Shown: positions 16,074 to 20,061 of the stretch, piece by piece
How the letters are laid out: each line of letters starts with the position of its first letter
How positions within the stretch are numbered: position 1 is the stretch's first letter
Source of the DNA: Perkinsus olseni
Lineage: Eukaryota
Direction: 5' to 3'
Assembly (NCBI GenBank): GCA_013115125.1
Contig: JABANN010000050.1
Coordinates: 62,001 to 98,175 of the forward strand
Length of the DNA: 36,175 nt
The notes under the pieces: model-generated
Databases searched by the model: none
What the model was told of the DNA's origin: nothing
What the model saw: only the letters and a program-made list of their open reading frames with translations
Program-made: the position numbers and the translations under genes

Positions 16074-19000
16074 TTACTTGAAGTAATTCTTAATCGTGCA
16101 ATCAGTAAGACGTAATTCATCAGGAAATTGATAAGTTTGAATGTCAGTCAACTGTGTGCCTTCGATGACCTTACGCTGCTCATGAAAGCCACTGAGGTAC
16201 TCTCTAGCTAACTTGGCAGGGCAGCCATTGTCCAGGGCCATGGTGATGTGAAGGTGCGGCTGAGGCTGCAAGTCATCGAGGAACTCGGGACCATCGACTT
16301 CAACCTCGGCACAGACCAGCCTCCCTGGTACCACTAAAAGCCTCTTCGGTGAGACCGTGGCCATCATATCCTCCCCCATGGCAATAGCCTGCACGATCTG
16401 CTTCCTCCTCTTACCCTCAGGCTCCCGACACCCCAGAAACGACAGAGTCACGTGAAGCTCTTCCTTCATACTCCACTGGCTGGCATCAAGGAAGCTCATC
16501 GTGTGCTTCATCAACACCTCCCTATTAGGCCCCGAAATATCCGCTCCCACATACAGCGGCCAATGGCACTCCGCCGCAAGAGCTTCCACCTTCCGCACAA
16601 CAGCCTCGACGCATCGATCCGACTCAGCAAAGGAATCATCATCACACTCAACCATCGCCGTCAGCTTCTGCATTTTCGCCAGAACCTCCTCGCTGACTTC
16701 AAAGTTCCATCGATTCCGATCCTTCCGTCCAGGGACGCTTGATAGCACTTCCTTCGCGAGGTTGATGCCATCTTCCCTCCAACTCCCGCTGTTCACTATG
16801 GGCAACGTCAAAACCGAGGATATCAACTTGTTCTGCTGCAGTCCTGCATGATCCTCGAAAAGCCTCCAAAATTCGAGGAATACAGAAGCTTTCTTGCGAT
16901 CATCATTGGCAGCACCGCCAAGCGTCGGGTGGGCGTCCCTCCCCAAGACCCGCTTCAAGCACACTGCCATCGTCTTCGGGCTCCATGGGTAATTCCACAC
17001 GCTTTCCTCTCCCGAAACATCATCAGTGTCAGCCAGGAATAACGCTATCACCTTAACCTGCGCGTTCGCCTTCATAAACGGCGCCGCGGTTCCCCTCAGG
17101 TCCCCAGCATGGATATGATTCTTATCAACCAACACCACGTGAGTGGACCCCTTCGGCGCTCGCCCGATGCTCTCCCTCGAGAACGCCTCGCTGGCCTTTC
17201 TCATCTCCATATTCTGCCGTCTCTGATCGGCCCTCCCCTTACCAGCAAACTCATCACTGCTCAAGTAAAGAGCATCCCACACGTTCGCCCCAGCTGCGGT
17301 TTCGCTCTTCTCCTCTACCAAATTTTGCCGATATTTCCCGTGTGTTACCACCAGCTTAGCGAACACTTCCTTGAACAGCCGAGTCTTGCCAATGCCCGGC
17401 ACCCCGATCGGCGCCACCACGAAGACCCTCTGCGCTTCCCCCGCTCCTTCAGACTCCTCAAACTCACCCGATAAGAGCTTCCCGACCACCACCCTGAGTT
17501 CTTCCTCCGTGTCCACACTGGTCTGCTGCAGACCAGGAATAACAATCTTGTCCAGCGTCTCGTACCACTTCCCAACGAGAGCGCACTGCTTGTCGACAGG
17601 AGAATCAAAGAACCTCTTATCAGTCTCGTAGAGGACCTCTCCCTTCCCTCGCTCCAACGTACGGTTCAATACATCACCCACCTGCCCGTCCCAGCCGTAC
17701 CGAATGACCTTCACGCGATGCCGCATGAGCTTACTAAGACCCTTCAGTTGCAATATATTTGGAAGCTGCACAACATGGCTGCCGCATGTGAGCATCTTCC
17801 TAACCTTGTCGGGGTGCAGAGCGAAGTCATCAGTAACCATCCCCTTCGGTACCGAACCCGGAGGCGCATGGATTACTACCACCCTTCCCGCTGCCTCTGT
17901 CGCATCATCAACCACTTCTGTCCGCGCAGCCAGAGCCAGCAACTCCGGGAACCGCTGGTCCACCGCTTCAAATGCACCAAAACCGTCGATATCCTCTCTG
18001 ACCACGTATTGAACCCTTCGGAAGAGGTCCAAGAAGAGCGCTAGCAGCTCATCCTTCCGAGCATTCCCACTCAGCATCATCTCGCAAGTCTGTTTGAACA
18101 CTTTACCATCTTGCCGCTTTCGAGTAGCCTGCTTCGTCACTTCCCGCAGTTTCCGCAAGAGCCGGTATTGAGCCGTCTTGGCCTTCCCCAGAGCCACTAC
18201 TACCGCACCATCGCCTTCAGCTCTCCGATTCTCAAAGTAGGTCACTACCCCTTCCCTCTGGCAGTGGATGAGGTGTTCGAGAGACGTCACATCATCCATC
18301 TCGGACTGGTTCACGGCAGCTATCTCGTTGCTCATGCTATCCCAGTCCCCCTCCCGCAGCTCCACTGCCTTCGCCGGCCGAACCTGTGATGAACCATCTT
18401 CGACCTAAGATACTCTACTAGTCTACCTCCTCTATCGTAGTGAGGCCACATGCCTTGAGAATCGTCAGCGTGGCAGCGGGGGCTACACAGGCCGATTCGC
18501 CACCGCACACGTTCGCAACGAGGGCGTACCTAGCAGCAAACTTCAGCACCCCCGGCCAAGGAGGCTCCTCACCATTTAAGGCCCTGAGAGTTGTACTTCA
18601 CTATGTGCTGGACTCCACTCCTACCGCAGAGCTCGCCAATCAGCGTATGGCGGGAGAGGATCTTCCGAATCTTAGGTCGATCATGGTTAAAGACAGAATG
18701 CAGCACAGCTGATACCGTTTCCAAAGTGCCGATCTGCTCGAGCTTCTGCAGTTCTTCAAACCACGCCGCTGCAACAAGTTTTGCATACTCGAATCGATCG
18801 TTTTTGAACCTGCCATAAATACCAATGCCGTGGATCGAACTCGGGACCTCCGCTCTCATACCGGTGAATATCCGCCAGCTCTCTTGCGACGAGCGAGACG
18901 TTCTTAGAACAAATGACCCAGGCCGAGAACTCCTCCGACCACGACACCTACGAACCCATAAATTCTCAAAGGGGCACCAAGAGCCATCTCAGGCACCTGT

Positions 19001-20061
19001 GCATTCTCGCCGTTCGCCTTGTCCAGTAAATACAAATTAGATGGCCATCGCTTTGTCAGCCGTTTTCGGAGCCAGGACGGCTCATCAGTATCTAGAAGAC
19101 TAAAAAATGGCAAAAAGACTTCTGCTGGAAATATGGTCAGAATAGAGGAAATAAACAGGCTTGGCACGCACCCCCGAGAAACGCGGATACTTCACAGTAA
19201 GAGCAACAGTCCCCTATTGAACTCTCGCCCGGTCGTACCAGCGAAATCCTTATCCACATCAATGTCGAAGAACTTGGGCAAGCCTTGCCTCAACAAGACC
19301 ACCTTAGCCACTCTCTCTGTGGCAGCACTGCGGGAGCCACCATCATCCTCTTCCTACAACTTCAACGCTGAGAAAACCCTGGGAGTTTCCTATCACCTCG
19401 GCCGATGCAGGCTCGACCCTCCTTTTCTTGTTGCCTTCGCTCGTGGTTACTGCCAAGGACAGGCCCCTCCGCAGAAGACAGTGTAGAAGGTCATTTTTCA
19501 AATACCTGGCAGCACTGGTATTTTCCCACTCAACCTCCCTCCCTGCTGCTACGTTTTGTCCTCAGACTTCCGCTTGAGCATGCTAACATCGACAATCTCA
19601 CAGCCTAGCTCTGGGACTTTGGTATTAACCTAATTAACGGAAGACCTCAGGCAGCGGAATGAGGGACTGAGAAGTCCTCGCACTAGCCGCTACACCTGGC
19701 AAGCGCATTCCGACGGAACTATCGCAGTGCTATCACTGTGACAAGGAATACTGACCATATAAACTAATAGTAAATATATATATAACCCCATGCAGTAAAC
19801 CATAATAAAAGATTAACTATAAATATATATTAGCATGGGTTGTAATGGTGTATAATATAATATTAGGTAGTGTAATTAACCCAGCACTACCAGTTTGCAA
19901 TGCCTGCATCTCTTCAACCACTCATACAGTTTCTCGGGAGTATCGACCTTGGCCTTGATAGCAAGGGGGCTTATCCGATGACTACTGGCGGCGCACATGC
20001 CGCTGGCCTCTGACGGCAGGAGGGCTCTAGTCGCCTGAGGGGCGATGCGACACCGCGACAT
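16074..20061 (-). CDS. TRL1: Trl1/RNL-type trifunctional tRNA/RNA ligase (adenylyltransferase-ligase, polynucleotide kinase, 2',3'-cyclic phosphodiesterase), about 11 exons; start at ATG 20061 or 19998
   Basis: Spliced 5' exons give RRGLS, RQGLPKFF, motif I KANG (K codon 19018-19020), Ia CSKN and III TLIGELCG..QHIVKY. The terminal exon gives IV EGVV and V KAKTAQYRLLRKLREVTK (cf. fungal Trl1 KYK...YRQWREVTK); kinase PIGVPGIGKT, SSD, VDKNH, RVLGRDAH; and CPD motifs HVT and HIT. About ten GT-AG introns between 18384 and 19890 keep the frame. Confidence 0.9.

Follow-up and report, generated by a model that had tools for sequence, protein, structure and literature searches.

Does the minus strand of this Perkinsus olseni locus encode a complete heal-and-seal RNA ligase, and if so, to which kind does the enzyme belong and what may it do? 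The window, i.e. the whole analysed stretch of 36,175 nucleotides, contains a long open reading frame at 16074..18404 (minus strand), which spans 776 aa from stop to stop. Counted from the first GTG, Val14 of the frame, it comprises the 763 aa that a first-pass annotation had read from the ORF track. The same annotation had placed ligase motifs I, Ia and III upstream of this frame, and they are indeed found there as KANGEN, SKNVS and LIGELC, each in a separate short exon. The complete coding region, here called gene A, has its ATG at 20061-20059 and its stop at 16076-16074; it thus occupies 16074..20061 on the minus strand, exactly the span given beforehand, with ten exons and nine introns. 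Joining the exons at the RNA-supported joints yields a CDS of 3258 nt and a protein of 1085 aa. All nine joints are GT..AG on the minus strand, and in each of three runs one single spliced contig spans all exons, which settles the joining of the 5′ exons to the terminal exon for which a cDNA check had been proposed. One of these runs (X5) is RNA on record, while X1 and X2 are presumed, by guess, to be RNA. A further run, X23, for which about 4% of the raw reads were scanned, had 0 reads at gene A and carries no weight either way.

On the minus strand, exon 1 (19891..20061; residues 1-57; X5, X1 and X2 contigs) is followed by intron 1 (19630-19890, 261 nt, GT..AG). The spliced contigs then define exon 2 (19553..19629), intron 2 (19506-19552, 47 nt), exon 3 (19397..19505), intron 3 (19354-19396, 43 nt), exon 4 (19239..19353) and intron 4 (19092-19238, 147 nt). 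Exon 4 encodes R141, G143, K146 and F147, which are nearly invariant across the family alignment. Motif I lies in exon 5 (18997..19091), which intron 5 (18948-18996, 49 nt) separates from exon 6 with motif Ia (18862..18947); intron 6 (18810-18861, 52 nt), exon 7 (18716..18809), intron 7 (18671-18715, 45 nt) and exon 8 with motif III (18573..18670) come next in the same contigs. Intron 7 is in frame and is treated as coding in model P0003, yet it is removed in all three RNA contigs. Intron 8 (18530-18572, 43 nt), exon 9 (18427..18529) and intron 9 (18384-18426, 43 nt), defined in the same way, lead to exon 10 (16074..18383; residues 317-1085 plus stop), which corresponds to the long ORF and is backed by both the frame and the spliced contigs.

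The product is almost identical to GenBank protein P0001, "hypothetical protein FOZ61_008597 [Perkinsus olseni]": one of 1084 aligned residues differs (S175T), and the gene A product carries one extra terminal Lys. The claim that the enzyme was hidden by introns is thus true for a prokaryote-style ORF track only, since a correct spliced model, albeit unnamed, was already in GenBank. So far the product has been annotated as a hypothetical protein and nothing else. P. chesapeaki has a full-length ortholog with 54-57% identity. The first-pass annotation had made the interest of the enzyme as a drug target conditional on a parasite of animals, and this applies: P. olseni is an alveolate parasite, and its hosts are molluscs (shellfish).

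The protein carries intact ligase, kinase and 2H motifs, as had been claimed, namely five ligase motifs, a P-loop, RxxxR and two HxT. Ligase motif I (KANGEN, 182-187; 19003-19020, minus strand, exon 5) includes Lys182 (codon 19020-19018), the predicted adenylylation site. It is followed on the same strand by motif Ia (SKNVS, 203-207; 18894-18908, exon 6), motif III (LIGELC, 259-264; 18626-18643, exon 8), and motifs IV (REGVV, 359-363) and V (LGKAKT, 381-386), which together occupy 18174..18257 in exon 10. The columns of all five motifs are nearly invariant in both the 124- and the 137-sequence alignments; in the latter (n=137), K182 is conserved in 131 sequences, S203 in 133, K204 in 131, G261 in 135 and E262 in 134, and in the later motifs E360 in 128, K383 in 125 and K385 in 123. 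Right after motif V there is an RxxR element, R393-K-L-R396, with both arginines nearly invariant in the family alignment. In the Chaetomium enzyme, an RxxR beside motif V (R334/R337) was proposed by the authors as the 2′-PO4 site (PMC6379707); by their place after motif V, R393/R396 may be the counterpart of this pair. According to the same source, the Trl1/Rnl6 clade is defined by an N-terminal sub-module resembling Rnl1 plus a distinctive helical C-domain (PMC6379707). A putative helical C-terminal domain of the gene A ligase covers residues 396-473 (17913..18146, minus strand; helices at 387-470 in the model), and in VIA structural alignments the Trl1-LIG chains run through model residues 472-473 (chain 396-397), whereas T4 Rnl1 reaches only 394-395. 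In the predicted structure, the gene A ligase hence displays the Rnl6-type make-up including the clade-specific C-domain.

Profile, VIA and motifs delimit the polynucleotide kinase module (633-920; 16572..17435, minus strand). It contains the P-loop GVPGIGKT (643-650; 17382-17405), the stretch LSSDEF (17247-17264), VDKNH (735-739) with D736, and R794-x-x-x-R798 within KRVLGRDAHPT (16923-16955). Conservation is high (n=63) for K649 (57), D736 (62), R794 and R798 (60 each). D693 in LSSDEF is a candidate general base, a role assigned solely via the profile alignment to PDB tRNA ligases; its column is poorly aligned (MAFFT, n=63: E 19, D 9, K 8). The 2H cyclic phosphodiesterase (CPD) module (921-1085; 16077..16571, minus strand) is delimited by profile, Foldseek, VIA and motifs. 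It has HVT (960-962, within 16440-16454) and HIT (1028-1030, within 16236-16250), and of 32 CPD sequences, 31 have the first His, and the same count holds for the second His and for either Thr of these motifs.

To which family, then, does the protein belong? A phmmer search of 1.84 billion representatives gave 386 matches at E<=1e-3, 213 at E<=1e-10 and 27 at E<=1e-30, and in eight non-Perkinsus relatives the ligase, kinase and CPD stretches are colinear. The check with Trl1 Pfam models that the first-pass annotation had proposed did not come out in its favour: on P0001, PF09511 (RNA_lig_T4_1) scored 19.7 bits, below its cut-off of 28.3, and PF08303 (tRNA_lig_kinase) and PF08302 (tRNA_lig_CPD) gave no match at E<=10. 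P. chesapeaki P0004 matched none of the three, and among 46 scanned relatives PF08303 was found in none and PF08302 in one, at 22.3 bits against a threshold of 23. Since the curated thresholds were not reached, the assignment is based on profile and fold evidence, and we file gene A in the wider Trl1/RNL kind, outside those Pfam families.

A single-sequence phmmer search of the PDB with the gene A protein retrieved nothing relevant. The 124-sequence family profile, on the other hand, matched KIN-CPD structures named 'tRNA ligase' (6tzm, E 4.3e-12; 6u00, 5.7e-12; 6tzo, 2.6e-11) as well as the single modules 5u32 (KIN, 1.1e-7) and 9qw7 (ligase, 8.7e-5). In the alignment to 6tzm, one stretch spans KIN and CPD and pairs the P-loop, the D, RV..R..H and both HxT motifs. 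The AlphaFold model of the protein (pLDDT 86.6, pTM 0.61) points in the same direction, as Foldseek ranked 9r3w (5.3e-14), 6u05 (4.0e-12), 6n0t (9.0e-11) and 6n67 (3.6e-10) ahead of T4 Rnl1 (5.6e-8). With VIA, the model aligned to Trl1-LIG 6n0t with Z 26.2 (338/383 residues, rmsd 3.9, model 19-473 to chain 27-397; 6n67, Z 25.8), to LIG-KIN 9r3w with Z 25.4 (525 residues, model 19-921) and to KIN-CPD 6u05 with Z 17.4 (331 residues, model 633-1084 to chain 409-831). Language-model neighbours, which we treat as leads only, included clusters with PF08303, PF08302 and PF09511 (Ascomycota 'tRNA ligase'; score 0.97, 219/256 features) and a Streptophyta cluster with PF08302 (0.96). Sequence profiles and predicted fold thus support membership of the gene A product in the Trl1/RNL kind, as the first-pass annotation had it: LIG, KIN and CPD modules lie on one transcribed polypeptide, and for each module the closest solved structures are those of fungal Trl1.

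That annotation had also noted an extra domain between ligase and kinase, and hence a four-domain layout. The model agrees, with a separately and confidently folded alpha/beta insert (pLDDT 83) predicted at residues 480-625 (17457..17894, minus strand), bounded by low-confidence linkers (476-479 and 626-631). It sits between the end of the fungal LIG (model 473, chain 397) and the start of the KIN (model 633, chain 409). A Walker A motif (GxxxxGK[ST]) is absent from the insert sequence 480-625, and Foldseek with this domain gave no match at E<=1e-3. Its best wide VIA match was 6tzo (Trl1 KIN; Z 7.8, rmsd 3.6, 144 aligned), within the tool background of 7-8; the 50 listed matches are mostly P-loop kinases and related nucleotide-binding folds at Z 5.5-7.8, against the same background. 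Comparison of the insert profile with the kinase family by hhalign gave a Prob of 0.8%. The insert, which would be tethered by flexible linkers, looks non-catalytic, and it may have RNA or a partner protein as ligand. A long spacing recurs in the family: the ligase and kinase matches, 225 aa apart in the gene A protein, are separated by at least 219 aa in 38 of the 60 relatives with both matches, including the ciliate proteins P0026 (230 aa) and P0058 (264 aa). By hhalign, the Perkinsus insert profile matched the insert family of the long-form relatives (Prob 77.6%, E 1.9e-5, 135 columns); controls against KIN, LIG and CPD stayed below 1%. A direct search of the ciliate inserts with the Perkinsus insert HMM gave E > 0.7 throughout, so that the profile-profile comparison alone links them. 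The insert is probably common to the long-form relatives, ciliate proteins included, and so not special to Perkinsus; it probably corresponds to the long stretch that separates ligase and kinase in ciliates and, probably, in plants.

Among known systems, fungal Trl1 (C. thermophilum, C. albicans, C. glabrata; 6n0t, 6n67, 8rbj, 9qw7, 9r3w, 6u05, 6tzm, 5u32) has the same ligase-kinase-2H CPD order and is the best structural match to every catalytic module, including the Rnl6 C-domain. Both have KxxG, Ia, III, IV, V, GxGK[ST], RxxxR and two HxT in common, and probably the RxxR after motif V as well. The fungal kinase is GTP-specific. Identity in the structural alignments, however, is just 13-20%, and the Pfam kinase and CPD models, which are built on fungal sequences, miss the gene A protein. 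Moreover, where the fungal chains run from residue 397 to 409, the gene A protein has the folded insert of about 150 aa, and it exceeds the yeast enzyme, given as 827 aa in PMC4931112, by about 250 aa. Arabidopsis AtRNL (1104 aa) is closer in length. Its ligase lysine is reported as K152 and its P-loop lysine as K700 (PMC3964908), a distance of 548 residues compared to 467 (K182-K649) in the gene A protein, both of them long, and the distances from P-loop to HxT are similar (K700-T1001 and K649-T962). The nameable relatives are nevertheless ciliates, with no plant sequence by name among them. Closest among the named ones outside Perkinsus are Blepharisma stoltei, Tetrahymena thermophila TTHERM_00052480, T. 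malaccensis, Pseudocohnilembus persalinus, Moneuplotes crassus and Stylonychia lemnae. Their proteins, too, either go by labels such as 'RNA ligase domain-containing' and 'P-loop containing' or count as hypothetical or unnamed. Their identity of about 30% is limited to the ligase part; in Blepharisma P0026 the ligase, kinase and CPD stretches are colinear with the gene A protein. Trypanosoma brucei Trl1 (870 aa) is described as having ligase, kinase and CPD motifs and, from RNAi, as needed for tRNA-Tyr splicing (PMC4931112). It is a protist homolog by description, but a short-form one near fungal length and from another eukaryotic supergroup than Perkinsus. The nucleotidyltransferase fold of phage T4 Rnl1 matches model residues 41-394 (Z 19.9), yet its C-domain differs, and the T4 kinase-phosphatase (Pnkp) is a separate protein, unlike the fused kinase of gene A. 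Mouse CNPase matches residues 921-1084 with its 2H fold (Z 14) but has no attached ligase.

Gene structure, transcription, domain order, intact catalytic residues, profile homology and the homology of the predicted fold are best explained if the 1085-aa product of this transcribed gene is a heal-and-seal RNA ligase with three functions that belongs to the Trl1/RNL kind, its mechanism assigned by homology, and we regard this as very probable. From this homology we infer activities and substrates. By analogy with Trl1 and AtRNL, the C-terminal 2H domain (H960-x-T, H1028-x-T) would open a 2′,3′-cyclic phosphate to a 3′-OH,2′-PO4 end, and the P-loop kinase (G-x-G-K649-T650, D736, R794-xxx-R798) would phosphorylate the 5′-OH end. 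The N-terminal ligase, adenylylated on Lys182 of KANGEN, would then pass AMP to the 5′-PO4 and seal the break. The sealed junction would keep its 2′-PO4, the removal of which would fall to a Tpt1-type enzyme. The likeliest substrates would be tRNA exon halves, as cut by the splicing endonuclease. RNA breaks of other origin, be they programmed or accidental, may serve too if their ends are the same.

An active heal-and-seal ligase need not serve tRNA splicing, for RtcB might perform that task while the gene A enzyme acts in an organelle or on breaks of another kind, such as those in tRNAs or rRNA cleaved under stress or in mRNAs spliced non-conventionally. In Plasmodium, another alveolate, an RTCB ortholog is stated to be the tRNA ligase (2026 preprint, 10.64898/2026.08.16.745097), which makes RtcB in Perkinsus plausible. 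Furthermore, T. brucei is described as encoding both Trl1 and RtcB (PMC4931112, PMC10598085), plant RNL is reportedly targeted largely to chloroplasts (PMC4931112, citing Englert 2007), and within the window nothing links gene A to tRNA introns; the sole tRNA gene there, tRNA-Met at 2493-2566, has no intron. However, T. brucei, the sole cited organism with both enzymes, is stated to splice via Trl1 (PMC4931112), and the gene A protein retains, in the model, the ligase C-domain specific to Trl1, and after motif V an RxxR that is probably the one proposed to bind the 2′-PO4 (PMC6379707). On balance we consider a division of labour with RtcB possible but rather unlikely. Much less probable is a convergent architecture, in which an Rnl1-like ligase, a P-loop kinase and a 2H esterase were fused independently, as in viral or bacterial RNA repair. 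It would fit the unmatched fungal Pfam kinase and CPD models and the top language-model cluster, whose commonest known phylum is Nucleocytoviricota, and the authors of PMC6379707 state that membership of the plant LIG in the fungal clade could not be judged. Yet the 338-residue Trl1-LIG alignment (Z 26.2) runs through the clade-specific C-domain, whereas T4 Rnl1 covers the nucleotidyltransferase part only; KIN and CPD align jointly and in order with Trl1 KIN-CPD (profile E 4.3e-12; fold Z 17.4, 331 residues), and the domain order is identical to that of Trl1.

Next to gene A, a tandem paralog lies at 15791..10367. Its catalytic residues in ligase and kinase are replaced, at 12 of the 16 ligase positions that are otherwise conserved and at the lysine of the P-loop, its insert domain is triplicated and its CPD is lost. 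It retains an open exon of 1063 codons and shares its end point, to within one or two residues, with a relative of 52% identity. This divergence, about equal to that between gene A and its P. chesapeaki ortholog, argues for selection and against decay. A tentative, rather doubtful reading is that Perkinsus, and perhaps alveolates, have a two-gene RNA end-joining module: an active long-form Trl1 and a conserved pseudo-enzyme paralog in which the folds of ligase and kinase persist and which may act as scaffold, regulator or RNA-end sensor, the insert being a kinase-fold-like yet nucleotide-blind module for substrate or partner binding. If true, the dead paralog would be an accessory to a tRNA ligase for which no counterpart has been described among Trl1 enzymes.

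The window also contains a broken CPD copy at 7355-7851. It indicates that decay occurs in this gene family at the locus. One might thus suspect that gene A, adjoining a paralog without catalytic residues, is itself a dead relic, or a model wrongly put together, and yields no working enzyme. We find this barely credible, as its 1085 codons are open across nine confirmed introns, all its catalytic motifs are intact, the P. chesapeaki ortholog is full-length and 54-57% identical, and spliced contigs come from three runs.

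On the minus strand of the window, an open reading frame extending from stop to stop (16074..18404) encodes 776 aa; the 763 aa reported in the first-pass annotation is the length of this same frame when counted from its first GTG. The frame is 100% identical to the GenBank entry 'hypothetical protein FOZ61_008597, partial [Perkinsus olseni]' (database protein P0001, 1084 aa) and shares 54-57% identity with the P. chesapeaki protein P0004. As had also been proposed, ligase motifs lie upstream of the long frame on the same strand, where KFFDID, KANGEN, SKNVS and LIGELC are found in short open stretches. 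We aligned contigs and reads from four public runs on window positions 16000-20200. The evidence for splicing comes from X5, which is RNA on record, and from X1 and X2, which are RNA by guess; X23 (raw reads, about 4% sampled) placed no reads and carries no weight either way. One contig in each of the three runs crosses nine identical joints, all of which read CT..AC on the plus strand and hence GT..AG for a minus-strand gene, with intron lengths of 43, 43, 45, 52, 49, 147, 43, 47 and 261 nt in ascending window order. The 5' exons are thus joined to the terminal exon, which was the check set for this gene model, and the ten exons together give 3258 nt and 1085 aa, with the ATG at 20061 and the stop at 16074-16076. 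This ATG-to-stop span coincides with the 16074..20061 that had been assigned to the gene, here termed gene A. Its spliced product equals P0001 at 1083/1084 positions (S175T) and has an extra terminal Lys beyond the 'partial' entry. The 45-nt intron at 18671-18715 (minus strand) is in frame and absent from all three RNA contigs; the database model P0003 translates it as 15 extra residues. An alternative acceptor for the last intron, tcttag/GTCGAAG, was ruled out, as the RNA contigs put the acceptor at atcacag/GTTCGG.

A search with the Trl1 Pfam models, which had been suggested as a check, did not reveal the identity of the product. Only RNA_lig_T4_1 was matched, at 19.7 bits versus a cut-off of 28.3, together with faint P-loop and LigT matches, and the fungal tRNA_lig_kinase and tRNA_lig_CPD models gave no match. 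Likewise, a single-sequence phmmer search against PDB sequences yielded nothing relevant. An exhaustive phmmer search of 1.84 billion representatives yielded 386 relatives at E<=1e-3, including 213 with <=1e-10 and 27 with <=1e-30; in most of them the match covers residues ~40-410. By local re-scoring, eight relatives from outside Perkinsus (P0013, P0021, P0025, P0026, P0029, P0031, P0056 and P0068) contain colinear ligase, kinase and cyclic phosphodiesterase (CPD) stretches. Of the 46 long relatives picked for a Pfam scan, 18 lacked any match at E<=1e-3, PF09511 was matched in five (one above cut-off), PF09414 and DUF7920 in 12 each, PF08303 in none and PF08302 in one (22.3 bits versus a cut-off of 23). 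Among the relatives, the 2692-aa P0029 has an RNA-dependent RNA polymerase (RdRP) domain (PF05183, residues 694-973, E 3.4e-71), downstream of which its ligase (1633-1894), kinase (2002-2193) and CPD (2389-2480) stretches follow in colinear order; P0029 represents either a genuine RdRP-Trl1 fusion or the product of gene models that were merged.

The profile of an alignment of 124 relatives (A1) matched PDB chains named 'tRNA ligase'. The best matches are all Candida Trl1 kinase-CPD structures (6tzm, 4.3e-12; 6u00, 5.7e-12; 6tzo, 2.6e-11), aligned in a single stretch over both modules in which the P-loop, the Asp, the RV..R..H motif and both HxT motifs are paired. The profile also matches 5u32 (kinase, 1.1e-7) and 9qw7 (ligase domain, 8.7e-5). 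As a lead only, the nearest neighbours in a language-model atlas are Ascomycota 'tRNA ligase' clusters (PF08303, PF08302, PF09511; score 0.97) and a Streptophyta PF08302 cluster (0.96).

The ligase, kinase and 2H motifs noted in the first-pass annotation are all present in the gene A product and conserved in its relatives. Nearly invariant in A1 are K182, N184, G185, E186, N187, S203, K204 and N205, as well as G261, E262, E360, G361, K383, K385, R393 and R396. Counted over 137 ligase-domain sequences, K182 is conserved in 131, S203 in 133, K204 in 131, E262 in 134, E360 in 128, K383 in 125 and K385 in 123. For the kinase (n=63) the numbers are 57 for K649, 58 for Ser/Thr at position 650, 62 for D736 and 60 each for R794 and R798, and in the CPD (n=32) each of H960, T962, H1028 and T1030 is retained in 31. 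The general base of the kinase is probably D693 (LSSDEF), since the A1 profile alignment with Trl1 kinase-CPD points to this residue; the corresponding MAFFT column is unclean. Directly after motif V, the gene A product has an RxxR element (R393-K-L-R396). By its position after motif V, this element resembles the RxxR of Chaetomium Trl1, where the structure is described with a bound sulfate taken as a 2'-PO4 mimic (PMC6379707).

Structure prediction for P0001 with AlphaFold2, using A1 (mean pLDDT 86.6), leads to the same family. In Foldseek searches against the PDB, fungal Trl1 ranks first for every part of the model (9r3w LIG-KIN, 5.3e-14; 6u05 KIN-CPD, 4.0e-12; 6n0t, 9.0e-11; 8rbj, 3.1e-10; 6n67, 3.6e-10), followed by T4 Rnl1 (5.6e-8) and CNPase (1e-4). 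With VIA, 6n0t scores Z 26.2 (338 aligned, rmsd 3.9), model residues 19-473 corresponding to chain residues 27-397, and 6n67 scores Z 25.8. Matches were also obtained to 9r3w (Z 25.4, 525 aligned, model 19-921) and 6u05 (Z 17.4, 331 aligned, model 633-1084 corresponding to chain 409-831), and CNPase reaches Z ~14 over model 921-1084. Trl1 is defined as the 'Rnl6' clade by a helical C-domain that follows the nucleotidyltransferase (PMC6379707). The predicted model matches this C-domain of fungal Trl1, whereas the alignment with T4 Rnl1 (Z 19.9) is limited to model 41-394. Taken with the profile matches and the catalytic motifs, the predicted fold upholds the original assignment to the Trl1 type. 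Gene A is an unannotated Trl1-type gene, and as such a new member of a kind already known.

The extra domain that had been noticed between ligase and kinase appears in the predicted model as a separate folded unit (residues 480-625, here called the insert). The equivalent of fungal LIG ends at 473 and that of KIN starts at 633, and between them the insert forms a four-strand alpha/beta domain flanked by low-confidence linkers (476-479 and 626-631). Folded alone (window 17442-17900, six relatives), it reached pLDDT 83 and pTM 0.81. Pfam, within the whole-protein scan, and the language-model atlas (insert alone, best score 0.79) gave nothing usable, and Foldseek found no PDB match at E<=1e-3. 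In a VIA comparison independent of Foldseek, P-loop kinases and folds of related nucleotide-binding proteins make up most of the best 50 rows, headed by the Trl1 kinase 6tzo (144 aligned, rmsd 3.6) with Z 7.8, a value within the Z 7-8 that is the usual best for models without a true match. A Walker A motif is absent from the insert sequence. An origin of the insert by internal duplication of the kinase lacks sequence support, as the profile comparison with the kinase (hhalign Prob 0.8%) stays at the level of the ligase (0.4%) and CPD (0.6%) controls. Since the VIA score lies in the background range, we use the structural match for the fold class only. On these grounds, the insert may be described as a kinase-fold-like, nucleotide-blind module.

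The Perkinsus insert HMM had no direct match among the long ligase-kinase intervals of other relatives (27 compared, all E > 0.7). In the 60 relatives for which ligase as well as kinase was matched, the spacing is short (52-172 aa) in 22 and long (219-517 aa) in 38, the gene A product having 225. When the three Perkinsus proteins and eight with spacing above 321 were set aside, 23 of the remaining 27 long intervals formed one sequence family, and a profile-profile comparison of the Perkinsus insert with this family gave Prob 77.6% and E 1.9e-5 over 135 colinear columns. The long-form relatives that can be named are all ciliates; in databases they are unnamed, hypothetical or bear generic domain labels. 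For the plant enzyme AtRNL, the functional residues described in PMC3964908 (K152, K700-S701, D726, T1001) place 548 residues between the ligase and kinase lysines, more than the 467 in the gene A product, while the kinase-to-CPD distance is similar. Because of the spacing in relatives, the profile-profile match and the AtRNL interval, the four-domain layout is most likely a general 'long form' of Trl1/RNL enzymes rather than a Perkinsus novelty.

Trl1/RNL enzymes are said to be narrowly distributed, with plants, fungi, kinetoplastids and a split form in amphioxus being named (PMC4931112, PMC6379707). According to a 2026 preprint, the ligase of Plasmodium, another alveolate, is an RTCB ortholog and that of trypanosomes a TRL1 ortholog (10.64898/2026.08.16.745097); T. 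brucei is reported to encode both Trl1 and RtcB, with Trl1 carrying out splicing (PMC4931112). The open-access literature yielded neither an account of a Trl1-type ligase from alveolates nor a paper on Perkinsus together with RtcB; the Perkinsus paper that names a tRNA ligase deals, judging by title and abstract, with a different topic. The search for alveolate Trl1/RtcB returned only a Clp1 paper without mention of Perkinsus, the papers listed for ciliate or dinoflagellate Trl1/RNL concern fungal and plant enzymology, and PMC10275265 does not mention Trl1 and Tetrahymena together. A complete, transcribed Trl1-type gene in P. olseni, which belongs to the Perkinsozoa within the Alveolata, and the unnamed long-form relatives in ciliates widen this distribution. 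They suggest an early heal-and-seal pathway in alveolates, with loss or replacement in some lineages. We would place tRNA splicing ahead of a repair-only role for the enzyme, although it could go either way; the single tRNA gene found in the window, tRNA-Met (CAT) at 2493-2566 (plus strand), has no intron. As a parasite, P. olseni does damage to clams and abalone. Because animals depend on RtcB, the Trl1 of fungi and of trypanosomes is reportedly being explored as a drug target, and this logic would extend to the P. olseni enzyme only if it proved essential and the mollusc host were without a Trl1-type ligase.

Gene A is followed on the same strand by a tandem paralog, gene B (~15791-10367, minus strand), which starts ~280 bases downstream of the gene A stop and is ~28% identical to gene A. 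Ten pieces of the database protein P0008 (952 aa) map to 15752..11570 with 62-97% identity, and the 52%-identical P0006 maps to 13522..10373. The last exon of gene B (10367..13558) is open for 1063 codons, and P0006 ends within 1-2 residues of its stop. In the window, the ligase motifs of gene B read KDCPEGET for DKANGEN, HAGRAS for CSKNVS and TLTGTLH for TLIGELC, and the P-loop of the kinase-like part is GLPGSGAS for GVPGIGKT, the lysine being gone. P0008 departs from the consensus at 12/16 conserved ligase positions and is the only one of the 137 ligase-domain sequences with more than eight differences; 20 others have at least three, and most of these have alignment gaps (fragments). The insert domain occurs three times in gene B, which lacks a CPD. 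Of all the observations, this conserved and, judged by its sequence, dead paralog stands out as the most unusual. Together with the insert, it offers a handle on the arrangement of Trl1 modules and possibly on regulation. The database model P0002 consists of the end of gene A fused to the start of gene B.

DNA and protein similarity revealed that the CPD-coding end of gene A is present a second time, at 7355-7851 (minus strand). This copy is 92.2% identical to 16212-16504 over 307 DNA columns, and 91-97% identical at the protein level over residues 945-1046. This is far above the ~28% that gene B shares with gene A, and points to duplication or gene conversion in the recent past. A 14-nt insertion, which brings in an in-frame stop following ...EGERRK, interrupts the reading frame of the copy, and the frame changes a second time near the 3' end, before the C-terminal ...VIEGT... 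stretch. The insertion was considered as a mini-intron, but by eye no GT..AG choice restores the frame. The short database entries P0009 (136 aa) and P0052 (90 aa) correspond to gene A CPD residues 945-1071 and 985-1044, respectively. The spliced gene A contig of X1 follows the window sequence only as far as 16212, precisely where the duplicated segment has its edge, and its next 30 letters are identical to window 7474-7503, the flank of the CPD copy. This switch reflects either an assembly jump across the repeat or a strain or allele whose gene A has this other 3' end. Positions 8273-9171, which lie between gene B and the CPD copy, comprise low-complexity tandem repeats with units of the PTRPHSD / GPGGIQV type; several frames are open through them on either strand. 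Elsewhere in the window, a 561-aa open frame at 23718-25400 (minus strand) matches Pfam DUF6740 from end to end (E 1.1e-142).
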